A stretch of DNA of 64,000 bases from Acidobacteriota bacterium (GTDB lineage: Bacteria > Acidobacteriota > Thermoanaerobaculia > Multivoradales > UBA5704): positions 20,889-84,888 of the forward strand of contig JAXDKS010000034.1 in the NCBI GenBank assembly GCA_034666985.1, written 5' to 3'. Within the stretch, counting starts at the first letter, position 1. Each line of letters begins with the position of its first letter. The notes under the pieces are model-generated. The model was not told where the DNA came from, searched no databases, and saw nothing but the letters and a program-made list of their open reading frames with translations. The position numbers and the translations under genes were made by a program. This document shows, one piece after another, positions 13,434-53,871 of the stretch.

Positions 13434-14453
13434 GTGGAACTGATCGATACCATCACTGTTCGGTACCAGGACAACGAACGGCTTATCATGCTGTTCCTTG
13501 GGGATCTTGCCTCTCTGCCGGAGAGTGAAGCCGTCGATGTCCTGATTGTGTCCGCCTTTCCAGATGACTACGTCCCGACGCGCACCAGCTTGATCGGAGC
13601 GCTGGCCCGTGCCGGCGTCTCGGTCGCCGATTTCGCCCGGGAAAAGGAGGTTGACCTCCGACAGTTCTCAAGCTGCTGGCTTTCCCGCCCGATCGAGCGA
13701 ACGGGTGTCCACTTCCGACGCCTATTGTGCTTCGAGCCGCTGTATCGTGGTGAAGCTCCGGAAGTCGTGGGGGACATTTTCCGCAGCATCGTTCCATTCA
13801 CGACGGGCAGTCCACCGATTTCTCAAGTCGCAATGCCTCTGGTTGCCTCGGGGGATCAAGGCGAGTCTGCCGAGGTGATGCTTGCGGCGTTGACTGACGC
13901 CTCCGTTCATTGGTTGTCCGTCGGGTTACCTCTCAATCGCATCAAGATTGTCCTTCGCGATTCGACCAATTTACAGTCGCTCCGCGAGACTTTTGCTGGT
14001 GTTAAGCGGCGTCACGCAGACACCGCATCTGCTCCACAGCAACCCAGCTTTCGCTTCGATGTCTTCGTCAGCTACTGTCATAAAAACAAAGAGGCAATCG
14101 ATGATCTCGTGAAGGAGCTGCAGGCCCGCCGTCCTGCCTTGAGCGTTTTCGTAGACCGATTGGAGCTACGCCCCGGTGCGGCTTGGCAGCAGCACATCTT
14201 CGAATCGCTCGATGAGTCGCGAAAGGTGATCTGTGCTTTCTCTCCGGACTACCTCGAATCGAAGGTCTGCAAGGAGGAATTTAACATTGCCCTGTTTCGA
14301 CACCGCGAGGCTGCAGATGGAGTTCTGCTCCCCCTTTATTTGTACACTGCTCAGCTGCCGACTTACATGAAACTCTTCCAATACGAGGATGTGCGAGAAG
14401 GCGACTGCGTGAAAATCGCACAGTCGGCTGAGAGGCTGCTCAACCAATTGTGA
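13434..14453 (+). CDS. TIR-domain protein: uncharacterised about 190-aa N-terminal domain plus C-terminal TIR domain
   Basis: GTG start with GAGGGT RBS. C-terminal FDVFVSYCHKNKEAIDDL...SVFVDRLELRPGAAW...VICAFSPDYLESKVCKEEF matches the TIR betaA, BB-loop and alphaC (SxxYxxSxWCxxEL) signatures. The local GC is about 50% against about 69% flanking. Confidence 0.7.
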   Translation: MELIDTITVRYQDNERLIMLFLGDLASLPESEAVDVLIVSAFPDDYVPTRTSLIGALARAGVSVADFAREKEVDLRQFSSCWLSRPIERTGVHFRRLLCFEPLYRGEAPEVVGDIFRSIVPFTTGSPPISQVAMPLVASGDQGESAEVMLAALTDASVHWLSVGLPLNRIKIVLRDSTNLQSLRETFAGVKRRHADTASAPQQPSFRFDVFVSYCHKNKEAIDDLVKELQARRPALSVFVDRLELRPGAAWQQHIFESLDESRKVICAFSPDYLESKVCKEEFNIALFRHREAADGVLLPLYLYTAQLPTYMKLFQYEDVREGDCVKIAQSAERLLNQL

Positions 14454-14674
14454 GTATGGCGCTGCGGCACGGTGCGGTTCATCGCCAGGAATAGGTTCCA
14501 GGCATTTATCGAAAGAGGTGGGGTTTGCTGAGTGCGGAAGCGAGGGTTACCGAAGAGCCCGGTGCGGGAAAACCGCACGCCGGGATCTGTGTGGGGGGTG
14601 CTGCGGCGTCCTACCGCGACTAGGCGTTCAAGCAGACTGAGGTTTATATATGGCGCGAAGGGAGCTTAGGGAGA

Positions 14675-15811
14675 ATGAACTCTAGTCTTGACTTTTCTGA
14701 ACTCACTCTGAGCCACCCTCACGATTTTTTTCGTGTAAAGCATGTGCCTGTTGAGCCCGGGACGTGCTTTGTGCTTATGCCCTTTTCGGAGGAATTCGCA
14801 ATCGTATTTGATGCAATCCAAGAAGCTCTAAGAGGGTTAATGGTATGTACGCGCGCCGATGACCTACTTCTTGGCGAATCTATTCTCGAACGTATACTTT
14901 TGGGGGTCGCCACTTCAGAATTAATAATTGCTGATCTTACTGGAAAGAATCCTAATGTATTTTACGAGCTCGCGATTGCTCATGCCAGAACGAAGAACGT
15001 CTTGCTCTTAGCACAAACCATAAAAGATGTGCCGTTTGATCTCCGCCCGTTCTTTTGCCACCGATATTCTGTCTCCTCGCGTGTAGGAATAGAGTCCTTG
15101 AAGACTGTTGTGCTCAAGGCGGCTCGAAAGGTGGTTTCTAAGCGATCCTCAAGACCCCTTGACAGTGCTATCACTCGGACCCAGCGTATTGTGGATTTCA
15201 TGGCGGACAAGCTCAAGCAGCCAGATGACTGTCGACAACTCGTCATTCGTATACAGGCAAGTATTTCGTCGTTGGGCAACTCGGCGCGTTTCGGTTTGCG
15301 AGGCCGTGAGAACAGGAAATATAACAGCCTCCTTGAGGAAGAGCGTGAGCTTCTAATTGAGCTGATCGAGCACGGGGCGAGCCTCCATGCTATCTTGTCA
15401 CCCCACCGCAGTATCTTAAGCCCTGAAGATAGTTCAGATGAGAGGTATGTTAGAATATCGAGAGTGATCTCCTTTCTAGAAAGGACGGATGATTGTCTGT
15501 CGAGATGTCAGGTGGCTTTGTCGCCGGTACGAAGCTCAAACCTACTTTTCTTTGGAGAGGAAATTCTATTCGAGGGGCACAAGACTGATGTCGAAAGGGG
15601 TTTCGGGTTGACTCTGATCTATACCGACCCTCACACACTACGGCTAAGGATCGGGGCATTTGACAAGCTCCTCGAGTCCGCTAAGCAGTTTACCTTAAAT
15701 CGATACAATACAAGACAAAAGAAGAGGGTTGACGGTTTGACGCTGAAGAAGGCGGCAATAAGAGGTCTCGAGGAAGCAAGGAGACCGGCACAAAATAGTG
15801 TTACGCCTTAA
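14675..15811 (+). CDS. Protein with an N-terminal nucleoside-2-deoxyribosyltransferase-like/SLOG-type Rossmannoid domain and an uncharacterised C-terminal domain
   Basis: CFVLMPFSEEFAIVFDAIQEAL..CTRADD...LIIADLTGKNPNVFYELAIAHARTKNVLLLA matches the NDT-like pattern (hhxMPF....RADD....ADhT..NPNVxYExGhAhA..K.Vhhh). Low-GC; adjacent to the TIR gene. Confidence 0.55.
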   Translation: MNSSLDFSELTLSHPHDFFRVKHVPVEPGTCFVLMPFSEEFAIVFDAIQEALRGLMVCTRADDLLLGESILERILLGVATSELIIADLTGKNPNVFYELAIAHARTKNVLLLAQTIKDVPFDLRPFFCHRYSVSSRVGIESLKTVVLKAARKVVSKRSSRPLDSAITRTQRIVDFMADKLKQPDDCRQLVIRIQASISSLGNSARFGLRGRENRKYNSLLEEERELLIELIEHGASLHAILSPHRSILSPEDSSDERYVRISRVISFLERTDDCLSRCQVALSPVRSSNLLFFGEEILFEGHKTDVERGFGLTLIYTDPHTLRLRIGAFDKLLESAKQFTLNRYNTRQKKRVDGLTLKKAAIRGLEEARRPAQNSVTP

Positions 15812-27315: not shown

Positions 27316-28210
27316 TCAATCGTGAATCAAAATGGTACTAGTTCCACCGGGCTTGCCGAGAGGCATCAGAACGATCGTGTTTTTGTTTCCAATGACTAAT
27401 GCAGATGAGATGTCGAGCGTTAGCTCCTCGTTATCCGCAAGCCCGACAACCTCGAACTTCTTGCCGTTCACCTGGATGCGCAGATGTTTAAGCCCGGGTG
27501 CACCGTTCTTGATGGTAACTTTGTTCTCGGTTTGCGGGACGTCGGTATATGTCTCGACAATAGGTTGCCCGCTATAGCGGATCAAGCTGATCAGCACCGG
27601 ATCGCAGATGACGCAGCATTCCTCCGGAGTACACATTGATAATTCGACGACTGAACGCACCCCCTCGGTGATCTTTGTGGCCGTGGTGATTACAGGTTCA
27701 ATGGTGCCGACTGTAAACGGCGGGATGTCCACTGTGACGTTTTCTTCCTTCACAACTGATATACTGCCGATTCCATTCGTCGTCTGCTGCGCTTCGATCT
27801 CCACCCGCGTCGGCGAACCGGGTAACAGGCGCGGCACAGCACAAGCTACCTTGGCGACGCACACTCTCCTGTTCAGATCCTTGTTAAACTTGCAGCATTC
27901 CTTGTCAGTGCAGCACACTCGGCGGCCATCAAACGAGATAGCCGGATCTTGATCGCAACACTCCGAAAACCCTTTCTTGGGACAGCAGCAGTCGGACCCA
28001 AGTGTGGTGCCGCACTTGAAGTAATCGGTTCCCTCTACTCCGGCGCAGTGCCCAGGGCTGCACACTTCGCCGGCATCGACCGCATTGGTACTTAAAAGGC
28101 CCAGGCTGCCTCCCAAAAGAATGGTGGCCAAGAGTCCCATCAACCAGGGCCTGTAGAATGCCTCCACGATAGATGACTTTTTCGTGGTGTCCCTTGAATG
28201 GTTTGCCATT
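27316..28210 (-). CDS. Secreted or membrane-anchored cysteine-rich hypothetical protein in a lower-GC patch
   Basis: RBS GGGAGGACAGCA ATG. N-terminal TM/signal (LMGLLATILLGGSLGLL). Cys-rich module (CSPGHCAGV..KCGTTLGSDCCCPKKGFSECCDQD..CCTDKECCKF). GC about 50%. Confidence 0.5.
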
Positions 28211-28844
28211 GCTGTCCTCCCAAGTCTTTCCCAGGTGTCAGCCGTTGCCGCCTGGGCTGTTGTTGAGGCTTTTCCACACGACATCCAGACATCCCCATGA
28301 TGGGGGCTTTTACACGGGTGAGCCTTACATGAGTGTAAGGAGTTGTCAATGATATAGATGCATCAACCTCTTGCCATATAGAGAGGCCGGAGCGCGGATG
28401 AGATCCGTTCGCAGGGGGAGCCACTTCGCTTCGCGGAGCGCTCATCTTCTGGAACAGACCGAGAAGTTGCTAAGGTTTCCCAGCACCCGTGATTACCTGT
28501 AGAGCCGGTCTCATAAATGGCTCCCGGGATCTGGGCTGCTCCAAGAAAAGCCCGTCCTGCTTACTTCGCCTAAGCCCCCGTAGTTGGGCTAAATAAATGG
28601 GTACTTATTGGTATAGAGCATAAAATTGAAGAACATCCCGAGAGTTCGGCAGAAGCAAACAAGGCGTTGCTATACACGATCTGTAAGAGACTTCAAGAGG
28701 CTGGCGTCAATTTAGTGCATATTCCAACAAATGGACGCGATACGAATATTCAGAAGAGGCTGGCCTGATTTCCTTGATAGGCCATGTCTCGAATGAGAGC
28801 ACGTTCGATAAGGTGAAGCATAGGAGGGCCGGGATGATGAGGGT

Positions 28845-39695: not shown

Positions 39696-42062
39696 CTACC
39701 GCGAGAACCCGGGATAGGGCACGACCTTGGCGTCCACTCCATCGGACGCGTGAAGGTCGGCCGCGGCCTGCGTCGCGTCCTGCTCGGAAGAGAAGGGTCC
39801 GAAGGCGACCGTGCAGACAGCGTGGCCGTTCTCCTCCCGGGGAAGGAGGAAGGCGCCCCGGCCGGAGAAACGGGCAAGCGCGCGAGCGGCGTCGATCCAG
39901 TCCTCGGAAGCGAACACCTGCACGATGGGAGAGCCCGCCGTCATCCGGGTCGGCGTTTCCCCGGCACGGGCCGCGTCGAGCCGGCAGGTTGCCGTGAGCC
40001 GCTGCCAGGTGGCGGGATCGATGATGGGGAAGGATGGGGTCGTCGGACTCGGGGTCGGCGTCGTGTCGAAGGAACCGGGGAACTGCGGGCCCGGGCTGCC
40101 GAGGGTCGGACCCGAGTCGGCGATGGGAGGACCCGGGCTGGCAATGTCCTGCGATCCCGTCGTGGCGACAGAGGCCGGCTCCGGCGCGGACCGCGAGCGG
40201 AGCAGGAACACCGAGAGACCGACTACCGCCACGGCGATCATGGCGGCCACGCCCATCCAATTCCCCCGGCGCTGGCCGGACCGGACCGGAGGCGGCGAGT
40301 GCGATCCAGGATAGGCGGCCGTACCAGCCGGCGGCGGAGGGGGCAAGGGCTGGGCCGCGGCCACGGCAGCAGGGAGCGGGGGACGAGGGGGAGCCACGGC
40401 CGTGGCGTCGCCGTCATCTTCATTGGCCTCGTCGCTCGGAGGCTGCGGAGCCGTGGGGAACGCGACGACCGTGGCGTTCAGATCGAAATCCCCCTTGCCT
40501 CCAGGCAGGAGCTGGAAATGGAGCCGCCGCAGCTCCTCGGGAGGCAGGCTCCGCGCCGGCTCCTCCGGCAACGGGTCCTGCCAGTAGGTGGGACGCACGA
40601 AGTTCGGACGGCCCAGGGAGATTGCGTACCGCCACTCCTCCTCGACGTAGGGCGAGCGCAGAGCGTTCCACGACCAGAAGAGCTGGAAGACGTCCGCCTT
40701 CTGGATCAGATCTTTCAGCCGGTCGTTCCATACCTCGCCCGCGCGCAACTCGTGGACGTCCCGCAGATAGCGGTCGCCGAGGGTGCGGGCATAGCGCTCG
40801 AATTCCTCGACGATGCCGGCGTCCCGATGGGAGTACGATGGGAAGATGTTGCGGAACGGCCGGCTCGCGACCCGCTCAGTCGGCACGGACGGAGGCGCCG
40901 GGCCGCTGGCGATCCGGGCATCGACCCGGATGGCGAGGCTGACCTCGGCCAGGATGATGCTCCCCCAGAACACGCTCATCCGGCCGCGGACGGCCGTGCC
41001 TGCGAGCTCCGGCCCGGCCCGGATCCGGAACTCCTCCCGATGCACGGACTCCAGCCACAGGAACGTCCGCCGGGGCGGATTGACCTCGAACCCCGGGATC
41101 TCCGGCACGAACGTGATCTCCGCCTCATGGGGGATGGCGTAGCGGCTGTCCTGCTTGACGTCCGCATACCCCTGAGCCATGTCGCCGAGGATCTTCCGGG
41201 CCTGCGCCCGCACTTCCTCGACCGGGTCCGGCTCATCCGCCGGAGCGTCTGGCGGCAGCTCCTCCAGATGGGCGAACGCCAGCAGCGGAAACCACTTCAA
41301 CGGCTCCACCGCCCGCGGGCGGTACACCGTGAACTGGACGTTCTCGTGAAGAGGGAGCGCCTTGTCGGGAGGAACGTGGGCCGGCGAAGGCTCGGGCGCC
41401 GGAGCCGACACCGGAGCGAGTAGGGGAGCCTCCCTGGCCAAACCCTGTTCCTGGATCGCCTTCCAAAGATCCTCCAGAACCCGCTCGGCAAAAGCATCCA
41501 ACCGAGCCGCCCGGCCGAGACCATCGCTCCAACCGCAGGAATAGCCGTCCAGGACCGGCCGTCCCGAAGCCCGGATGCGATCCTTCAGCTTGGTGAGGCG
41601 GGAAGCTGCCGCTTCATTCTCAGGAAGGAACCGTTCCCGCTGCGCCTCGGGAACCGACAAGGGGAACCGGCGGTCCCTGAAATAGAAGAAGCTCCGGGTC
41701 TTACCCGGCTCGCGAAGAGCCCCCTGAAGGATCTCGAGCTCCACCATGCTCCGGCCGGGGTCCTCCGCCAGCCAGGGCTGCGCCGCCACCAGAGCCAGAG
41801 GGACCGCCGCCGGAGGCTCGCCATACCGCTCCCCCAGCAGCCCCACGAAGATCTGGCACCCCTCGATCTCCCGGAACCGCCGCGCCAGGTCCCACTCCTC
41901 CCCCTTGACCTTGGCAGGATCGACGACGACGATCTCGATCCCCAGCCTCTGCGCCCGCTCCCGGAGCTCGGGCAGGACGAGGCCCTCGATGACGGCGCGT
42001 TCGCCGTCCATCTCCCCGGGGAGGGATGCGAGGTAGAGGCGGAGGGGAGAGGGAGGAGGCAT
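39696..42062 (-). CDS. Multidomain protein: N-terminal DUF4062-like domain, central TIR domain, single TM helix and C-terminal SPOR (peptidoglycan-binding) domain
   Basis: DUF4062-like LYLASLPGEMDGERAVIEGLVLPELRERAQRLGIEIVVVD..IFVGLLGERYG. TIR: IFPSYSHRDAGIVEEFERYARTLG...DVFQLFWSWNALRSPYVEEEWRYAI. TM: WMGVAAMIAVAVVGLSVFLL. SPOR: VQVFASEDWIDAARALARFSGRGAFLLP..AVCTVAFGPFSSEQDATQAAADL. Confidence 0.65.
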   Translation of the reverse strand: MPPPSPLRLYLASLPGEMDGERAVIEGLVLPELRERAQRLGIEIVVVDPAKVKGEEWDLARRFREIEGCQIFVGLLGERYGEPPAAVPLALVAAQPWLAEDPGRSMVELEILQGALREPGKTRSFFYFRDRRFPLSVPEAQRERFLPENEAAASRLTKLKDRIRASGRPVLDGYSCGWSDGLGRAARLDAFAERVLEDLWKAIQEQGLAREAPLLAPVSAPAPEPSPAHVPPDKALPLHENVQFTVYRPRAVEPLKWFPLLAFAHLEELPPDAPADEPDPVEEVRAQARKILGDMAQGYADVKQDSRYAIPHEAEITFVPEIPGFEVNPPRRTFLWLESVHREEFRIRAGPELAGTAVRGRMSVFWGSIILAEVSLAIRVDARIASGPAPPSVPTERVASRPFRNIFPSYSHRDAGIVEEFERYARTLGDRYLRDVHELRAGEVWNDRLKDLIQKADVFQLFWSWNALRSPYVEEEWRYAISLGRPNFVRPTYWQDPLPEEPARSLPPEELRRLHFQLLPGGKGDFDLNATVVAFPTAPQPPSDEANEDDGDATAVAPPRPPLPAAVAAAQPLPPPPPAGTAAYPGSHSPPPVRSGQRRGNWMGVAAMIAVAVVGLSVFLLRSRSAPEPASVATTGSQDIASPGPPIADSGPTLGSPGPQFPGSFDTTPTPSPTTPSFPIIDPATWQRLTATCRLDAARAGETPTRMTAGSPIVQVFASEDWIDAARALARFSGRGAFLLPREENGHAVCTVAFGPFSSEQDATQAAADLHASDGVDAKVVPYPGFSR

Positions 42063-42199
42063 GGCTATCCTTGATTTTATTCCAAGAAGGACGACCCGAA
42101 CACCATCCAGCCCGTGCTAGCATAGAGCTGGAGGGTGTTGCTTTCTGGCGGGCAAAATGCTTTGATGACGCGTCCCGTCGGGGAAAGGCAGACACGTGT

Positions 42200-42973
42200 A
42201 TGAGCGTCCTTCCGCTCGAACAGGAGATTGAATACCCCACCTCCGACGGCCAGCCCATGGCCGAGACCCCTCTTCATCGGAAGGTGATGAACGACCTCAT
42301 CGGGGGCTTGGAGGACCGTTACGCCCAGGAGCCAGACGTCTGGGCTGGAGGCAACCTCTTCCTTTGCTACGAGGAAGGCAACCCGGCGGCGTGCGTGGCC
42401 CCGGACGTGCTGCTGGCCAAGGGGGTGCCGAAGTGGGACCGGCCGAACTATCTCCTCTGGGAGGAAGTGCCGCCCAGCTTGGTGGTGGAGATCACGTCGA
42501 AGAAGACCCGGCGGGATGACCAGGGCAAGAAGAAGTCGCTCTACGAGCGGCTTGGCGTCGAGGAGCTGGTCCTGTTCGATCCCTACGGAGAGTACCTGCG
42601 GCCGCGGCTCCAGGGTTACCGGCTCGTCAAGGGGCATTATCAACCGGTCCCCCTGGAGCAGGACGGGGCATTCCTGAGCCAGACGACAGGCCTGCTCTTC
42701 CACCCTGAGGGGAAGCGATTACGGCTGGTGGATGCCGTCACCGGAGAGCGGTACCTGTGGCGCGAGGAGTCCGAAGCGGCCCGGAAGGCAGAAGCCGCCG
42801 CCCGTCGGGCCGCGCAGAGAAGAGCCGCCAAGGAGGCCGCCGCCCGCCAGGCTGCGGAGGCGAGAGCTGCGGAAGCGGAGGTGAAGGCCGCTGAAGAGGC
42901 GGCAGCTCGACAGGCCGCCGAAGAGCAGGTTCGGGCCTTGAAAGCGGAACTGGACCGGCTGCGGAAGGGCTGA
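42200..42973 (+). CDS. Uma2-family (DUF820) PD-(D/E)XK endonuclease with a Lys/Ala/Glu-rich coiled-coil tail
   Basis: EYPTSDGQPMAETPLH...APDVLL..G..E..PSLVVEITSKKTRRDD..KKSLYERLGVEELVLFDP is the Uma2 restriction-endonuclease-like core. Confidence 0.75.
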   Translation: MSVLPLEQEIEYPTSDGQPMAETPLHRKVMNDLIGGLEDRYAQEPDVWAGGNLFLCYEEGNPAACVAPDVLLAKGVPKWDRPNYLLWEEVPPSLVVEITSKKTRRDDQGKKKSLYERLGVEELVLFDPYGEYLRPRLQGYRLVKGHYQPVPLEQDGAFLSQTTGLLFHPEGKRLRLVDAVTGERYLWREESEAARKAEAAARRAAQRRAAKEAAARQAAEARAAEAEVKAAEEAAARQAAEEQVRALKAELDRLRKG

Positions 42974-42991
42974 CCCGCGCGCCGGAGCGGC

Positions 42992-44788
42992 CTAGGGAGG
43001 AGTCAGAGGCTTGGTGACGAACGCCGCACGCCAGTCAGCCTGCTCCAAGAGTTGGATTTGGCAAAAATACTCCGCCTGGGCGCCCAGTTCCTTGGAGGAC
43101 ATCGCCCTCTTGGAGCTCAACAAACTGGTCAGCAAAGCACTCAACCTCGCTCGCAAGGCTTTGGAGCGCCGGAAAATTCGCTCAAACTCGCCCTGATGGG
43201 AAATGCCTTCAACGGCGGCACCGACAGCCGGCAGGACGACCGCACAGAGGCTCAGCAGGAGGATTGCAGCGGCGGCGACAAATTTACCCAGCCGGGGATC
43301 TGCTTCTTCACCAAGCCACAGGTGAACAAGGCACGCCACTAGAGTGGCGGGGAAAAGCCATTTTACCACTAGCGAATGCAGACGATGGTGTGCGAGCTCC
43401 ATCCTCGCGGAGGTCTCCGCGTGGTACTTGACCTGCCCCTTCACCGCGTCCGCGAGCACTTGACGATAGGTTTCCAGGAAGGCTGCATCCATTCTTGAAG
43501 AAACCATCCCTAACTCACGAGCAATCGCTCGAAAGTACCAATTGAACCAAGTCCTGCCGGGATCTTCTTCGAGGTGTGCAGGGACTTCAAAGGCAGGAGT
43601 CACCCGAGCAAGGGGTATCAGGTACTGCATCTGCCTGAAGCCTTCGGCGAGAAGCCGATAATCGATCCATCGCTCATGGAGATGGAAGCGCTGGTTCCCC
43701 AGCCACACCAAGATCAATATGGCGGTGATCAACACCAGCTCAACCCAAAACGCATCGTGGTACCCTTCTTTGTAGATACCGAAGAAGGCTGAGAATACGG
43801 CAGCGGCGCCGAGCCCATAGGTTAGGATGAACAGACTGCGATAGATATCTCCATAAGTATTGGCGAGATCGTCTGCGCGCTTTAAATGAATCTGGCAGCC
43901 ATTAAGAAGCTTATGCCCTATACGGCTGTTGGGTTCCTCAAGGCTGGCCCAACGATCCTCCGCCGGCTGATCGCCACCGTTTAGGCCATTGTTGCCTGTC
44001 TCTTCGAGGCGCTTTTCCCAACCACGGGCGATGAAATTGCGGAACGTTTTGTAGATCGGTATCGGCTTGGGCTGCTTCTCCCCGAGAAATCGCTCCAGAG
44101 GCTTGGGACTGACGTCCGTTGGCATCTCGAAGATAGGTTTTAGACGATTCAAGAGATGGCCGAGATCCGTTTTTCTTGGGGGTTCCCCAGGATTCGTACC
44201 TCGTTCCAAGAGGCAGATCTCGTGCTCTGGACGGGAATTGATCCAGATGATTGGAATGCTTCGAGAGAGCGCTTCGGTGGCCACAGCCCCCGGATCCCCT
44301 TTTTCTCCCTGCTCGCCGTTCCACACAGCGATGAGTACATCGCACTGACGTAGAACGGCCTGTCCCACGGTCTCACGTGCTGCAGGCTTGTCATCCGAGG
44401 AACCATCCAACTCGACCTTTACCGAATCAAGACCCCAAAGATCATCGAAGATCTCATGCCATTCTGCGGTCAGGAACTTCTTCCTGTATTCCTCATGCGC
44501 TACGGATAAGAGGCACTGCAGCTCAAATTTCTGCTGAATGGCCTCACGCGTGACTACCAGTTCGGCTCCTTCTCCCAAAGGAGAGATGATGCGCATCGTC
44601 GGGTTCTCGCTTATGTATAATCCCTTGCAGGGACTACGGAGATCGCCGGCGCATTCACGGAGTTTTTTGAGAGCTTCTTGAATTTTTTTAATGAGGAGTT
44701 CATTGGATGTCTCGGAACGCAAATCGCAGCCCGTTACGCCGACGCGTACAACCAGTCGTGTTCCCGTCGATGGTCTTTTCTGTATCAT
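42992..44788 (-). CDS. SLOG-domain protein fused to a 4-TM (tandem 2TM, SLATT-like) membrane effector region
   Basis: N-terminal Rossmannoid SLOG-like domain (RVGVTGCDL...ISPLGEGAELVVTREA...CDVLIAVWNGEQGEKGDPGAVATEA), paralogous to the upstream gene. Two pairs of TM helices separated by a soluble helical segment. GC about 52%. Confidence 0.6.
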   Translation of the reverse strand: MIQKRPSTGTRLVVRVGVTGCDLRSETSNELLIKKIQEALKKLRECAGDLRSPCKGLYISENPTMRIISPLGEGAELVVTREAIQQKFELQCLLSVAHEEYRKKFLTAEWHEIFDDLWGLDSVKVELDGSSDDKPAARETVGQAVLRQCDVLIAVWNGEQGEKGDPGAVATEALSRSIPIIWINSRPEHEICLLERGTNPGEPPRKTDLGHLLNRLKPIFEMPTDVSPKPLERFLGEKQPKPIPIYKTFRNFIARGWEKRLEETGNNGLNGGDQPAEDRWASLEEPNSRIGHKLLNGCQIHLKRADDLANTYGDIYRSLFILTYGLGAAAVFSAFFGIYKEGYHDAFWVELVLITAILILVWLGNQRFHLHERWIDYRLLAEGFRQMQYLIPLARVTPAFEVPAHLEEDPGRTWFNWYFRAIARELGMVSSRMDAAFLETYRQVLADAVKGQVKYHAETSARMELAHHRLHSLVVKWLFPATLVACLVHLWLGEEADPRLGKFVAAAAILLLSLCAVVLPAVGAAVEGISHQGEFERIFRRSKALRARLSALLTSLLSSKRAMSSKELGAQAEYFCQIQLLEQADWRAAFVTKPLTPP

Positions 44789-44805
44789 TTATGTCCTCAT
44801 TTCGC

Positions 44806-45477
44806 TCAGCTCATGCCGCGCGCAGTCAAGACTCTTCCGATCGCTTCGGAGAGTCCGTTCATCGAATCGTATAAGAGAGGAGCAATCGACCTTAGTAGAA
44901 AAATCTCCTCGTGGGGTCGTACCCATACAGTAGTAATTCCTCGTGCGATGGCTTCTTTCACGATTTGCCCTGTACCACCCTGTCCTGCCGGAGATTGACC
45001 ATTCCATATAGCGATCAGGATGTCAGAGTGGAGAAGGACCCATCGACCCACCTCCTCGTAAGCTTTGTTTTCATGCTCGCGGGAACCCGCCAGCTCAATG
45101 ACTTGCGTGGTACGCTCTAACAGAGCATGAAACGCCGTCTTGGATTCTGGGATCGTGAAATCCTTCTCGTACTCCTGGCGTGAGAAAGGCAGCGGGCTCT
45201 GAAGCTCATAGCCAAGCATCAATCCTTCTTCAGCTACGATGCGATCGGCACCTTCGGCGAGAGGTGAGACGACTTTGAGGAGGAGCTCTTCTCTGACGTC
45301 TGGATGCCGTTCAGAGAGCCGACGAGCGATCTCCTTGACCTGGGCCAGGACTTTACGGACCGATCCTCTCAAAAGCGCCTGGTCGTATCCCGCTTCGGAT
45401 AAGCCTTTGGTCCGATGGCCGGTGACGCCGACTCGGAGTGTCGGCGGTGAGCCGAGTGGACTCTCCTGTGAGACCAT
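44806..45477 (-). CDS. Standalone SLOG-domain protein (LOG/YpsA-like Rossmannoid nucleotide-binding fold)
   Basis: LRVGVTGHR..VVSPLAEGADRIVAEE...HSDILIAIWNGQSPAGQGGTGQIVKEAIARGI; the GGTG motif is as in the LOG/SLOG PGGxGT motif. It is the first gene of an operon with the SLOG-SLATT gene. Confidence 0.6.
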   Translation of the reverse strand: MVSQESPLGSPPTLRVGVTGHRTKGLSEAGYDQALLRGSVRKVLAQVKEIARRLSERHPDVREELLLKVVSPLAEGADRIVAEEGLMLGYELQSPLPFSRQEYEKDFTIPESKTAFHALLERTTQVIELAGSREHENKAYEEVGRWVLLHSDILIAIWNGQSPAGQGGTGQIVKEAIARGITTVWVRPHEEIFLLRSIAPLLYDSMNGLSEAIGRVLTARGMS

Positions 45478-45658
45478 ATGCGAACCGATTATAAACTATT
45501 CGCCGCGGCCGGCTCGGGTTCGCCGGCGAACCTCTGACTCCTGGGCCACCCCTCCCGGCCTGATCCTTGCAGCCGCTCACCTCAGGGACCGAGCCGGGCC
45601 TCCGGTCCCTCCACTACCATCTCTGACGCAGTCGCCCGGCCCCAAGGAGGACCCTCCT

Positions 45659-45874
45659 ATGGCTGAGATCCGAGTCGAGAAGAAGAAAGGCGTCCCCGTC
45701 TGGGCGATCCTGCTTGCCCTGATCATCCTGGCTCTCATCGTCTGGGCCGTTTCCTCGCTGCGCAGTCGCGGTCGCCAGCAGGACGTCGACCATACGGCGG
45801 CCCTCGCGGGACTGACGCAGGTCATCGTCCTCGAAACCCGCGAGACCTTCGTCCCCACCGCCCGGTGCGCCTGA
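45659..45874 (+). CDS. Small single-TM hypothetical protein
   Basis: RBS CCAAGGAGGACCCTCCT ATG; PVWAILLALIILALIVWAV. Confidence 0.4.
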   Translation: MAEIRVEKKKGVPVWAILLALIILALIVWAVSSLRSRGRQQDVDHTAALAGLTQVIVLETRETFVPTARCA

Positions 45875-52171: not shown

Positions 52172-53335
52172 ATGCTACCTTTGCCTGAGATCGGAAGGCG
52201 CATTAGAACCCTCCGTGAGGAGTTGGATATCCCGCGGGCCGACCTCGCTGCGGCGTGCGGCGTCGCGGAAGCCGTTATTGAGCAGCTTGAAGCCGGTCGG
52301 CTAGAGCAGGTGCCCGGGGACTACATACTCATCGTTGCCCGTCTCCTTAAGGTAGACTTCCGCTGGTTCATCTCCGAAGATCTCGATGGGATTGAACAGG
52401 GGACTAGGAGGATTTTTAGGGCTCTCTCTCAGGGTACTTCACGGGATCGTGTTGCTATAAGGCGCTTCGTTGGCTTCTGTTTAAACGAAAGCGAGCTTGA
52501 GAAGCTACTCGGTATCCACAGAATTTCTTTGCCTGTGGTTTATCCCGCGCCCGAATCGAGGCGACAGCTCTATAAGGAGCAGGGTCCGGCAGCCGCGCGG
52601 GCAGAGCGGGTTAGGCTGAATCTAGGCCTTAAGCCGATCTTTAATGTGTTCTCCATAATAAGATCCCAAGGATTGAGACTGAGCCGGCAGAAGCTCGACA
52701 GCAAGGAAATCTCTGGTTTAACTGTCTTTCATCCCCGCGCGGGAACGGCGATCCTTGTGAACTACGAAGAGGATATGTATCGGCAGTTCTTCTCTGCTGC
52801 CCACGAATACGCTCATGCTCTCTTTGATGGGCGAGAGTTGGAGGAAAAGAGAGTCCTAGTCTCCTACAAGAAGGTCTATGATTGGACCGAGATTCGCGCG
52901 AACACCTTTGCCGCTGAATTTCTGCTACCGCAAGAAGCGCTTGCCCAGTATGCGCGGCCTCGAGACCTTTCGTCGCTAACAGCCATCATTGACCAGATTG
53001 CCCGAGATTACCGCGTTAACACTGAGACTGTTGCTATTCGCGCCAAAGAGGTTGGCTGGATTTCTGATAAGACGCTGAGTTCGTTTAGAGAAAAGAAACC
53101 AATTGTGATTCCGAGGGCAGATAAGCAAGATCCTGAGCTATCAGATGATCTGACTTCCCTGCAGGTCGAACGCTGGAAAGCACTGATCGCACAGGGCGTC
53201 AGCGTTTATTATGCGGAGCTATGCCGCCGTGCTCTTACAAGTGACCTTATAACTTTCGGGAGATTTGCGGAATTGCTGGATCTCACTCCAGAAGAGGCTT
53301 CTGAATTCATCCAGATGGCAGGGCTGGCTTTATGA
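52172..53335 (+). CDS. XRE-type HTH regulator fused to an ImmA/IrrE-family (DUF955) metallopeptidase domain
   Basis: N-terminal HTH (IGRRIRTLREELDIPRADLAAACGVAEAVIEQLEAGR). HEXXH in AAHEYAHALF. GC about 50%. Confidence 0.75.
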   Translation: MLPLPEIGRRIRTLREELDIPRADLAAACGVAEAVIEQLEAGRLEQVPGDYILIVARLLKVDFRWFISEDLDGIEQGTRRIFRALSQGTSRDRVAIRRFVGFCLNESELEKLLGIHRISLPVVYPAPESRRQLYKEQGPAAARAERVRLNLGLKPIFNVFSIIRSQGLRLSRQKLDSKEISGLTVFHPRAGTAILVNYEEDMYRQFFSAAHEYAHALFDGRELEEKRVLVSYKKVYDWTEIRANTFAAEFLLPQEALAQYARPRDLSSLTAIIDQIARDYRVNTETVAIRAKEVGWISDKTLSSFREKKPIVIPRADKQDPELSDDLTSLQVERWKALIAQGVSVYYAELCRRALTSDLITFGRFAELLDLTPEEASEFIQMAGLAL

Positions 53336-53871
53336 GAGTGATCGGTGCTGTCAGCGGTTGGATGCTGGACAGCTCGACTTTCATAAACGCTCTCGTCGTG
53401 AAGAAGGTGTGGATATTGTCGGCAATTCGAACGCCGCTGTTCCTTCCGGAGTACGTATTCCGAATCGAGCTCGGCACAGGGGCGCGGCGAGAGACTCGCC
53501 ACGAGGCTCAGGCCTTGGTTTCACGAGGCCAAGCCTGCATCGAACATCTTACACTCGGGGATCTCGATCGGATTGCCGAACTATGCGCGCCGAAGCGTAT
53601 AGGCATTGGTGAGATTTGCTGCGCGGTCATCGCTGAACGATCTGATCGCGGCGTGCTTTGCGACGATTACAAGGCGCATCGGTGGCTTTGTGAGCGTGTC
53701 GGAGTGGCGGAGTGGGAGTCGATCGAGGAAATCCTAGTGGCTGGGGGAATCGCGAACTACCTTAGCGAATATGACGTCGAAGATTGCCAAGGGCTTCTTA
53801 CGAAGAATAGATACAGATGCAAGTATGATCTTCGCCTAGAGCTCTTACGGTGTCGAAATTCACCTGAGTAA
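53332..53871 (+). CDS. DUF4411-like PIN-fold protein, translationally coupled to the ImmA/IrrE gene
   Basis: ATGA overlap; N-terminal MLDSSTFINAL and later acidic clusters (..IGIGEICCAVIAERSDRGVLCDDYKA) are consistent with the PIN-like DUF4411 that typically follows DUF955 genes. Confidence 0.5.
   Translation: MRVIGAVSGWMLDSSTFINALVVKKVWILSAIRTPLFLPEYVFRIELGTGARRETRHEAQALVSRGQACIEHLTLGDLDRIAELCAPKRIGIGEICCAVIAERSDRGVLCDDYKAHRWLCERVGVAEWESIEEILVAGGIANYLSEYDVEDCQGLLTKNRYRCKYDLRLELLRCRNSPE

Follow-up and report, generated by a model that had tools for sequence, protein, structure and literature searches.

Genes for a TIR–SPOR protein, a SLOG protein and a SLOG–SLATT membrane protein as a candidate Thoeris-like unit interrupted by a Uma2 gene

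Related systems

Thoeris systems combine a TIR protein that makes a signal with an effector that responds to it. In type I, which pairs the TIR protein ThsB with the SIR2–SLOG protein ThsA, the SLOG domain senses 3'cADPR, while the validated type VII joins a TIR protein (ThsB) to a SLATT protein (ThsH) through a cADPR signal (bioRxiv 10.64898/2025.12.03.692087). Once it has bound its ligand, ThsH presumably oligomerises to breach the membrane; it is described as SLATT only, with the ligand pockets between SLATT protomers, and no SLOG is mentioned (bioRxiv 10.64898/2025.12.03.692087). A further candidate effector type, termed 'SLOG and 4TM', appears in Tables S1 and S2 of Yirmiya et al. (2025, bioRxiv 10.64898/2025.12.03.692087), with effectors listed under IMG identifiers 2691454910 and 2862473379, and two such operons tested in E. 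coli gave no defence. NADase activity has also been described for DUF4062 domains, with E1008 of human TEP1 serving in catalysis (bioRxiv 10.64898/2026.05.01.722283); in this group, Swarozyc and Evangelion are single NAD+-depleting proteins made of DUF4062 and an auxiliary region.

Gene arrangement and composition

The window analysed here is a 64,000-nucleotide stretch of contig JAXDKS010000034.1 from an Acidobacteriota bacterium. An ORF check found all four genes of interest where the sequence-only reading had placed them, and sequence and structure searches upheld its TIR, Uma2, SLOG and SLOG–SLATT domain calls (Table 1). The genes had been described as lying on opposite strands, which is true of Uma2 only: the free SLOG gene (D), the SLOG–SLATT gene (C) and the TIR gene (A) share the minus strand and succeed one another as D→C→A in the manner of an operon. 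GC content declines towards the right, as had been noted (A 0.70, Uma2 0.66, C 0.55 and D 0.55). At third codon positions, A (GC3 0.84) and Uma2 (0.81) are both host-like, in contrast to 0.57–0.61 for D and C, and the low GC of the latter two genes suggests that they are of horizontal origin. No classical defence island was seen directly flanking the D–C–A unit in the window.

Table 1. Features of the locus, in window coordinates
Feature	Positions	Strand	Details
A	39696-42062	-	788 aa; DUF4062 + TIR + one membrane helix + SPOR
A, SPOR (peptidoglycan-binding) domain	39720-39929 (residues 712-781)	-	PF05036; follows Pro/Ser/Thr-rich linker
A, single transmembrane helix	40200-40256 (residues 603-621)	-	hydrophobicity score 2.58
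A, canonical TIR domain	40503-40865 (residues 400-520)	-	TIR_2 E=5e-13
A, DUF4062 TIR-like NADase-type domain	41448-42044 (residues 7-205)	-	phmmer to 11gz_A
Divergent intergenic region A/Uma2	42063-42199	.	sequence inspection
Uma2, ORF	42026-42973	+	likely true start 42200
Uma2-family PD-(D/E)xK nuclease, between C and A	42200-42973	+	257 aa; coiled-coil tail; start as in JGI gene call; PF05685 3.6e-19
C	42992-44788	-	598 aa; SLOG + SLATT, four membrane helices
C, helical membrane domain, first hairpin SLATT/DUF4231	43016-43930 (residues 287-591)	-	DUF4231, SLATT_1, hydrophobicity
C, fused SLOG, degenerate pocket	44189-44761 (residues 10-200)	-	AF2, Foldseek, conserved-column count
D	44806-45477	-	223 aa; free SLOG

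A membrane-anchored protein with two NADase-type domains

The Pfam DUF4062 profile matched A only weakly (21.4 bits, under its cut-off of 24.7), and the assignment was firmed up by a phmmer match (E=4.4e-22) between this region and 11gz_A, the crystal chain of the TEP1 TIR-like domain. In that alignment, the A segment SMVELEILQ pairs with SVTEMEVMQ of 11gz_A and Glu110 is conserved; with the column placed from the crystallised range 895–1113, Glu110 would occupy the position of the TEP1 catalytic residue E1008. The position of TEP1 Arg908, counted by hand along the same alignment, is apparently taken by Gly16. In the second, canonical TIR domain, Glu476 (SPYVEEEW) aligns with the catalytic Glu found in BcThsB (WVRYEI) and in other Thoeris TIRs. 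The SPOR domain, at 25 bits, exceeded its cut-off of 21 (E=2.4e-5), and SPOR-like matches were also obtained in the orthologues of A, those in loci L001, L002 and L006 sharing the whole succession of DUF4062/TIR, helix and SPOR. Hydrophobicity predicts that DUF4062 and TIR are cytoplasmic and SPOR periplasmic. A thus resembles the DUF4062 NADases in its N-terminal domain. In contrast to Swarozyc and Evangelion, it also contains a canonical TIR, a membrane helix and SPOR on the same chain, and its gene is associated with one for a SLOG–SLATT protein.

A SLOG–SLATT protein with a decayed pocket and a free SLOG partner

In the AF2 model of C (pLDDT 89), the N-terminal domain matched ShosA (8zva) and DprA (3uqz) in Foldseek with probability 1.0, giving it the Rossmann-like three-layer fold of YpsA, DprA and LOG that marks the SLOG (SMF/DprA-LOG) superfamily. 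The remainder of the protein contains four transmembrane segments in a hydrophobicity scan (residues 320–338, 346–364, 470–488 and 504–522), and no internal repeat was detected in this membrane domain. DUF4231 matched residues 306–389 with 22.8 bits when the whole protein was searched, below the cut-off of 24.7, and with 25.6 bits when the C-terminal half was searched alone, while NCBIfam SLATT_1 reached 5e-6, below its own cut-off. Across the C family (n=40) these profiles were found in 36 (DUF4231), 13 (SLATT_1) and 4 (SLATT_4) members.

The SLOG pocket was judged by three conserved glycine-rich and acidic motifs: that of the loop following strand 1, (A)EGxD and GGT. In C the corresponding segments (GVTGCD, SPLGEGAEL and GEKGDPG) fail on conservation, and the domain keeps only 27 of 45 conserved columns compared with a family median of 43; the pocket residues gone include H21, R22, A74, D78, F98, D106, Y140, G168 and T169. 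D, on the other hand, carries GVTGHR, SPLAEGADR and GQGGTG, motifs that vary little or not at all within its family. The two are paralogues, D and the N-terminal 200 residues of C being 34% identical (E=9e-28). The same contrast holds for every C protein with a D partner (n=3), with 26–30 of the 45 columns conserved in C and 39–42 in the accompanying D, whereas most C relatives hold an intact SLOG within C alone. D, a YpsA-like SLOG, is a lineage-specific duplicate that seems to have assumed the task of ligand binding, and we propose it as the ligand-binding subunit.

The SLOG region of D and C matched nothing in Pfam, NCBIfam or PADLOC, and no PADLOC model matched either protein; this SLOG family is without a sequence model of its own. 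The 61 relatives of D gave weak matches only, to YAcAr (8), DprA (8), cpYpsA (3) and YpsA (1). Likeness to YpsA itself, a B. subtilis SLOG protein that inhibits cell division, is limited to 15% identity, and the genomic context and partners differ.

Conservation of the TIR–C pairing

Of 80 loci with a C relative, spread over many phyla, 36 have a TIR gene no more than 1 kb from that relative, and 44 have one within 4 kb. The 34 TIR genes at 500 bp or less amount to 4.5 per 10 kb, against 0.09–0.25 per 10 kb at a distance of 4–10 kb, a roughly 20- to 50-fold higher density next to C relatives. The neighbourhood of TIR and effector genes that characterises Thoeris is thus conserved, and the earlier suggestion that TIR and SLOG–SLATT belong together, which would have fallen if the genes were never co-localised elsewhere, is borne out. 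For the other 36 loci, a search up to 4 kb from C revealed no TIR gene; a number of these contigs are short, and some of the loci have TrkA_N or DUF4062–NACHT partners instead.

The TIR partners have unrelated architectures, in which TIR is combined with DUF4189, SIR2, TPR–PDZ, AAA_35, WD40, STAND, PNP, FGE-sulfatase or DUF4062, and the TIR domain is therefore the constant element. On an annotated Caballeronia plasmid, a DUF4231 protein is followed by a TIR protein and then by a WD40 protein. In L002 and L006 the gene that immediately follows C is an orthologue of A itself, and in L022 it is a more distant homologue (37% identity). In L002, D, C and A form a tight operon in which the ORFs of D and C overlap, with A beginning 8 nt past the C stop; the C–A gap in L006 is 10 nt.

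Judged by architecture and published description, the closest known class to D–C–A is the 'SLOG and 4TM' candidate Thoeris type, in which an N-terminal SLOG and four transmembrane helices, an architecture identical to that of C, are encoded beside a TIR gene. The TIR of the Nitrospira example of Yirmiya et al. resembles, at E=2e-6, the TIR that L041 encodes directly upstream of its C relative; a search for the Nitrospira locus with the Nitrospira TIR sequence returned only relatives of 55–64% on short contigs that lacked the effector. Whereas 'SLOG and 4TM' systems are plain two-gene operons, the present locus has a split sensor (D plus a decayed fused SLOG) and a Uma2 interruption, and its TIR protein additionally contains DUF4062, a membrane helix and SPOR. 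With type VII Thoeris it shares the combination of a TIR signal maker and a SLATT membrane effector, but C, unlike ThsH, has a separate SLOG and a second transmembrane hairpin. It differs from type I in that the effector domain is SLATT and not SIR2; among the C-relative loci, SIR2 occurs only on the TIR partner of some relatives (L011, L019, L020 and L024), whereas in type I Thoeris it is on the effector ThsA.

A second system combining TIR with a SLOG-type partner had been suspected at 13.4–15.8 kb of the window. This did not hold in profile–profile comparison, where the N-terminal domain of the partner was TIR-like (83% probability) and not a member of the present SLOG family (0.2%), and no more than 4 of the 80 related metagenome loci showed a TIR neighbour, though the contigs of these loci are short.

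Proposed mechanism and alternative readings

We hold with moderate confidence that D, C and A were inherited together as one functional unit, that this unit is of the Thoeris kind, with a TIR signal maker and a responding effector, and that it was later split by insertion of Uma2, and we predict from the sequences that it is a candidate type of anti-phage alarm. A would be a single-pass inner-membrane protein with its two NAD-cleaving domains in the cytoplasm and its SPOR domain on the peptidoglycan in the periplasm. Damage to the envelope or peptidoglycan during phage entry or lysis, or some other infection cue, could cluster the TIR domains, which would then use NAD+ to make a messenger derived from ADP-ribose, for example a cADPR isomer. 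This messenger may be bound by the YpsA-like SLOG pocket, which is part of C in most relatives and is here kept by the free D, with the decayed SLOG of C probably serving as a docking module for D. The D/C assembly would open or oligomerise the four-helix SLATT domain into a putative pore, so that the membrane is depolarised and growth is halted before phage release. Weighing against this reading are the failure of the two 'SLOG and 4TM' operons to protect E. coli, the lack of a PADLOC model that matches C or D, the absence of a classical defence island beside the unit in the window and the 36 loci where 4 kb around C yielded no TIR gene. The producer, sensor and effector set put forward in the sequence-only reading agrees with published Thoeris logic in respect of D, C and A, but its treatment of D as sensor and C as effector in two separate units is oversimplified and needs revising, as most relatives have an intact SLOG within C.

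The roles could also be reversed. C and D would then act as a sensor or regulator in the membrane, and A would kill by using its DUF4062 and TIR domains to deplete NAD+, as happens in Swarozyc, in Evangelion and with TIR effectors in CBASS and Pycsar. DUF4062 is a proven effector that hydrolyses NAD+ to ADPR and nicotinamide (bioRxiv 10.64898/2026.05.01.722283), A has two NADase-type domains with intact Glu residues, the C neighbour in L007 is a DUF4062–NACHT–TPR protein without TIR, and Yirmiya et al. caution that TIR may be the effector in unverified types. We nevertheless regard this reversal as unlikely, given that SLATT is both known and predicted as an effector and not as a sensor, that YpsA-like SLOG is a predicted ligand sensor and that of ThsA a proven one. 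Moreover, it is the TIR protein, and not C, that carries the varied fused domains of sensor type (WD40, TPR, STAND, SPOR and PDZ), the layout expected of a signal-making sensor.

SPOR domains bind septal peptidoglycan. A physiological role can accordingly be imagined, in which SPOR directs A to denuded septal peptidoglycan, an NAD-derived signal reports division or wall stress, and SLOG/SLATT adjusts the membrane potential or brings about programmed death as an envelope or division checkpoint. In line with such a role, a periplasmic domain is present in roughly half of the TIR partners next to C, and across three Thermoanaerobaculia genomes A shows high conservation and a codon usage like that of the host. 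Its identity to the orthologue is 83% in L002 and 67% in L006, compared with 49% and 37% for C, and this much higher conservation, together with the host-like GC3, could mean that A serves a housekeeping function in its own right. A checkpoint function of the whole set is doubtful, however, as the partners are typical of conflict systems (STAND NTPases, SIR2 and WD40, with patatin beside free D-like SLOG proteins), the distribution is patchy across phyla with one copy on a mobilisable plasmid, and the low GC of D and C suggests horizontal acquisition.

Uma2 and the interruption of the operon

Uma2 had been counted as a component of the set. The Uma2-interrupted layout of the window recurs in its closest relative, L001, the only one of the 80 loci in which single-sequence phmmer, which could miss a divergent Uma2, found the gene; none was detected by this search in the other 79, including L002, L006 and L022 with their A homologues. 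Uma2 does not therefore co-occur conservedly with D, C and A, and it is best described as a late insertion that splits D–C from A. That all four genes make up one composite system with Uma2 as nuclease effector or sensor might be argued from its place inside the unit in two genomes and from the match of Uma2-like proteins to the PADLOC candidate family PDC-S03 (E=1.9e-8), but we consider this very improbable in view of the 79 loci, the opposite orientation, which breaks an otherwise tight operon, and a GC3 that matches the host and not D–C. Mere chance proximity of unrelated A and D–C genes, to which the GC3 gap and the opposed gene between them might point, deserves almost no credence beside the density of TIR genes next to C relatives and the D–C–A and C–A operons that have no intervening gene.

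If D, C and A are one unit split in this way, the insertion uncoupled A from D–C, and A would for that reason need a promoter of its own in the divergent region between A and Uma2. Such a promoter we can only infer, since a scan of this region for the sigma-70 consensus gave no match. On inspection, the region contains an AT-rich stretch, GGAATAAAATCAAGG, immediately upstream of the ATG of A.

Gene content and domain architecture

An ORF check of the interval confirmed the four genes that the sequence-only reading had placed between 39696 and 45477, at the coordinates it had assigned to them. Its description of the genes as lying on opposite strands was right for the Uma2 nuclease gene only; the free SLOG gene D, the SLOG–SLATT gene C and the multidomain TIR gene A follow one another on the minus strand.

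Features of the D–C–A locus and the intervening Uma2 gene (window coordinates, or protein residues where stated)
Feature	Position	Strand	Description
A	39696-42062	-	788 aa; TIR_2 at residues 406-495, E=5e-13 (Pfam)
A SPOR	residues 712-781	-	25 bits, over cut-off (Pfam)
A membrane segment	residues 603-621	-	single strong hydrophobic segment
Uma2	likely start 42200	+	257 aa as called by JGI; PF05685 at 3.6e-19
C	42992-44788	-	598 aa; four hydrophobic helices
D	44806-45477	-	223 aa; 34% identity to C residues 1-200, E=9e-28

The DUF4062 match in A was below the Pfam threshold; what makes the assignment firm is a match at E=4.4e-22 between residues 7-205 and human TEP1, whose TIR-like domain has been crystallised (chain 11gz_A). 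Glu110 of A aligns with the TEP1 glutamate that we infer to be the catalytic E1008. In the canonical TIR domain, Glu476 (SPYVEEEW) sits in the alignment column of the catalytic glutamate of ThsB-type TIR domains. The hydrophobicity profile showed that the membrane segment stands between these N-terminal domains and a linker rich in Pro, Ser and Thr that is followed by the SPOR domain, with DUF4062 and TIR cytoplasmic and SPOR periplasmic. A thus joins the recently characterised DUF4062 and a canonical TIR, two NADase families, in one membrane protein, which raises the testable question of whether signal making and NAD+ depletion are divided between the two. The literature search returned no paper combining "SPOR domain" and "TIR domain". 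The approximately 195 residues between DUF4062 and TIR (206-399; window 41448-40866) had no Pfam match and were covered by long alignments to two orthologues (loci L002 and L006), and the JGI call shortens A to 771 aa, losing the conserved first DUF4062 strand (LRLYLAS).

The SLOG label given to D and to the N-terminal domain of C proved correct when AlphaFold2 models and structure matches were considered. The D model, built from 61 relatives, reached a pLDDT of 95, and the full-length C model a pLDDT of 89, with its N-terminal domain matching ShosA and DprA at probability 1.0. This SLOG family lacks a Pfam model of its own, and its relatives match YAcAr, DprA and YpsA weakly. In the PADLOC, NCBIfam and Pfam HMM libraries no SLOG match was obtained for D or C; the PADLOC HMMs gave no match of any kind to either protein, and D had none in any of the three. 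The SLATT label for the membrane half of C was likewise upheld, at the family level: DUF4231, which co-matches with Pfam SLATT models across the family, was found in 36 of 40 members, SLATT_1 in 13 and SLATT_4 in four. For C itself, the DUF4231 match was sub-threshold on the whole protein and over cut-off on the C-terminal half alone. The second helical hairpin was not detectable as a SLATT repeat, and a reading of the four helices as two such repeats was set aside (hhalign probability 0.4% for an internal duplication). The NCBI call shortens C to 534 aa, losing the first conserved SLOG strand (RVGVTG).

Association of TIR genes with SLOG–SLATT relatives

When a single genome for each GTDB species was scanned, relatives of C were located in at least 526 species, mostly of uncultured soil and sediment lineages (e.g. 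Acidobacteriota, Thermodesulfobacteriota and Planctomycetota). Eighty C loci were kept, each with up to 10 kb of flank per side, and TIR genes were identified by means of a TIR profile that had been derived from the same loci by iteration. Across the 80 loci, 34 TIR genes lay within 500 bp of C, corresponding to 4.5 per 10 kb, and the density at 4-10 kb from C was 0.09-0.25 per 10 kb. A TIR gene was present within 1 kb of C in 36 loci and within 4 kb in 44. The partners do not form one family: TIR was combined with DUF4189, SIR2, TPR-PDZ, DUF4062, AAA_35, WD40, STAND and TPR, nucleoside phosphorylase or FGE-sulfatase domains. Approximately half of the 36 adjacent partners consist of TIR, a single membrane helix and an extracytoplasmic domain, the periplasmic domains in partners of this build being SPOR, DUF4189, TPR-PDZ or FGE-sulfatase. 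The pairs span Acidobacteriota, Thermodesulfobacteriota, Dadabacteria, Planctomycetota, Proteobacteria and others, and a mobilisable Caballeronia plasmid encodes, by RefSeq annotation, a DUF4231 protein followed by a TIR protein and a WD40 protein. In the phage collection no C relative was found. The TIR domain therefore stays constant amid changing architectures and across many phyla, which is a classic signature of a functional link, and the association data support TIR plus SLOG-4TM as a real module.

Three other genomes encode a homologue of A directly downstream of C, in the same orientation. In Thermoanaerobaculaceae (L002) the D and C ORFs overlap, A begins 8 nt past the C stop codon and no Uma2 gene intervenes; this A is a true orthologue with DUF4062, TIR, membrane helix and SPOR (83% identity). 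A second true orthologue (L006; 67% identity) is separated from C by 10 nt, while the Pyrinomonadaceae protein (L022) is a more distant homologue, with 37% identity and no SPOR match. In the closest relative, L001, Uma2 interrupts the unit as it does in the window. Of the composite set proposed from sequence, the TIR, SLOG–SLATT and SLOG genes thus form a genuine unit by their shared neighbourhoods, from which Uma2 drops out.

The members of this unit differ in composition, with GC3 values of 0.57 for D, 0.61 for C and 0.84 for A. The split recurs in L001 (9983-15928) and L002 (9962-14878), although C identity among the three loci is only 49-75%. Compared with L002, A is 83% and C 49% identical, and compared with L006 the values are 67% and 37%. 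The cause could be that effector modules are swapped, or that a toxic gene is under selection for poor codons.

Several further neighbours of C relatives were observed. Genes directly upstream encode TIR plus nucleoside phosphorylase (PNP_UDP_1; L041, 4032-6419), TIR plus membrane helix plus FGE-sulfatase (L051, 8418-9968), and TIR plus DUF4062 in the reverse order to A (L018, 8108-9715). In 16 loci within L027-L053, from Acidobacteriaceae and Alphaproteobacteria, the gene right after C encodes a TrkA_N (NAD-binding) membrane protein of approximately 680 aa (e.g. L034, 11834-13864; L049, 11821-13815), in some cases also carrying RyR domains. Several of these loci have a TIR gene after the TrkA_N gene, 2-3.5 kb from C. 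The TrkA_N protein may act as an additional effector of a channel-like kind, or it may have a regulatory role.

A proposed split sensor

Among the 80 loci, a free D gene was present only in the window, L001 and L002. In the same three, the SLOG domain of C has lost H21, R22, A74, D78, F98, D106, Y140, G168 and T169, residues that 87-100% of the other family members retain. Of the 45 conserved family SLOG columns, the three C domains keep 26-30 and the D copies 39-42, with a family median of 43. The gain of D and the loss of the C pocket count as one evolutionary event, and the coincidence is therefore an observation and not a statistic. As judged from these sequences, the pattern fits a takeover of ligand binding by D, and decay of the C pocket with retention of the D pocket argues against D being a mere sponge. 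In this local variant, a small protein of its own now carries the predicted ligand pocket, so binding and gating should be separable in experiments.

Free D-like proteins are widespread beyond C loci. In a Gemmatimonadota locus (L081, 4868-6615), the gene for a 204-aa D-like SLOG protein overlaps the end of a patatin phospholipase gene, and this pair, in an operon, adjoins a 1306-aa nSTAND1-TPR protein; its make-up is that of the "SLOG Patatin" candidate in the literature.

The Uma2 insertion and local DNA signals

By single-sequence phmmer, a Uma2 gene beside C was found in only one of the 80 loci, L001, which marks it as a lineage-specific insertion outside the unit. A 12-nt imperfect direct repeat, AGGGAGGAGGCA (42050-42061) and AGGGAGGAGTCA (42994-43005), flanks Uma2, its copies lying exactly at the A start codon and the C stop codon. 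The 1.25 kb around Uma2 contain 16 short repeat families, this one included, and it was therefore not accepted as a target-site duplication, no other insertion scar having been found; it may be the scar of a duplication or have arisen by chance.

A scan of the locus for sigma-70 consensus promoters gave no matches, and terminator-like sites occurred at chance level only. AT-rich, -10-like elements lie 10-20 nt upstream of the ATG codons of D (TTTATAAT; 45478-45520, minus strand) and A (AATAAAAT; 42063-42100, minus strand), which hints at short-leader or leaderless transcripts. Divergent from D, a plus-strand ORF of approximately 71 aa (45659-45874), also called as a 71-aa gene by JGI, has a good GGAGG ribosome-binding site and encodes one hydrophobic helix (MAEIRVEKKKGVPVWAILLALIILALIVWAV...).

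Relation to Thoeris systems and proposed mechanism

Yirmiya et al. (December 2025; bioRxiv 10.64898/2025.12.03.692087) listed 29 candidate Thoeris types, one of them with an effector described as "SLOG and 4TM"; in that study, neither of the two operons of this type tested in E. coli, one from Streptomyces and one from Ca. Nitrospira nitrosa, conferred defence. C has the same architecture, a comparison made by architecture since those effectors are given as IMG identifiers only. The Ca. Nitrospira nitrosa TIR resembles the TIR gene directly upstream of the C relative in L041; a sequence search starting from it missed the protein itself, and no effector was present on the best contig (L164). 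D–C–A is best filed as a variant of a predicted Thoeris kind, to which it adds the putative split sensor, a SPOR-anchored TIR protein with two NADase domains and the interruption by Uma2. TIR plus SLOG-4TM is a predicted type that reaches across many species, and its sole test, in E. coli, failed. Many TIR partners sit in the membrane, carry periplasmic domains and may need their native envelope, which suggests how tests in foreign hosts could fail.

In type I Thoeris a SLOG domain senses 3'cADPR, and in type VII, where canonical cADPR is the signal, SLATT is the effector. By analogy, the present unit would resemble type VII in pairing TIR with SLATT and type I in its SLOG receptor. Aravind's group put forward the prediction that YpsA-clade SLOG and SLATT domains sense ADPR derivatives and control permeability. 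Given how the genes associate, which domains they encode, and the catalytic residues and topology observed, a Thoeris-type pathway is the best-supported reading of D–C–A, with its messenger, D–C contact, pore, trigger and anti-phage role modelled on such precedents. An infection-linked cue would activate membrane-anchored A, perhaps sensed through SPOR at the cell wall; A would convert NAD+ to an ADPR-derived messenger; the YpsA-like SLOG pocket, here in D docked on C, would bind it; and the SLATT domain of C would then breach the membrane.

A more specific version, which we consider unlikely, casts A as a bacterial counterpart of Toll-like receptors, in which SPOR would report wall damage (e.g. 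by phage lysins) through the helix to TIR and DUF4062, and a two-part receptor, formed when free D docks on C's decayed SLOG domain, would read the NAD-derived product and open the SLATT pore. If true, this would amount to a class of TIR immunity that senses the envelope.

Among the alternatives, the NADase domains of A could possibly act as the killing effector, as DUF4062 biology would allow. A rival is that D–C–A serves as an envelope or division checkpoint and not in defence, in keeping with the presence of SPOR, the resemblance to YpsA and the degree to which A is conserved. Chance proximity of A and D–C is contradicted by the enrichment of TIR genes beside C, and a single system of all four genes by the detection of Uma2 in only one other locus.

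The 13.4-15.8 kb locus and other low-GC islets

The proposal of a second TIR plus SLOG system at 13.4-15.8 kb was not upheld. Its TIR protein is real (13434-14453; 339 aa; TIR_2 at 3e-20), with no Pfam match in residues 1-195. In profile–profile comparison, the N-terminal domain of the 378-aa partner (14675-15811) matched TIR (probability 83%, E=9e-6), and its assignment as SLOG or NDT was rejected, with a SLOG family match of 0.2% probability. Among 80 metagenome loci carrying this domain, on short contigs, four had a TIR neighbour. Two TIR plus SLOG systems are thus unsupported, because the partner domain is TIR-like and few TIR neighbours were seen. The stretch 13434-15811 is a low-GC (0.51-0.59) islet in which a TIR gene is paired with a TIR-like one, with a sole full-length relative in metagenomes (50% identity).

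Other low-GC islets encode a 322-aa protein without a Pfam match (27316-28284) and an HTH plus Peptidase_M78 (ImmA/IrrE-like) protein followed by a 179-aa protein (52172-53871). Beyond 54 kb lie toxin–antitoxin-like small genes (UPF0175, DUF433 and DUF5615) and a DUF1016/YhcG nuclease.
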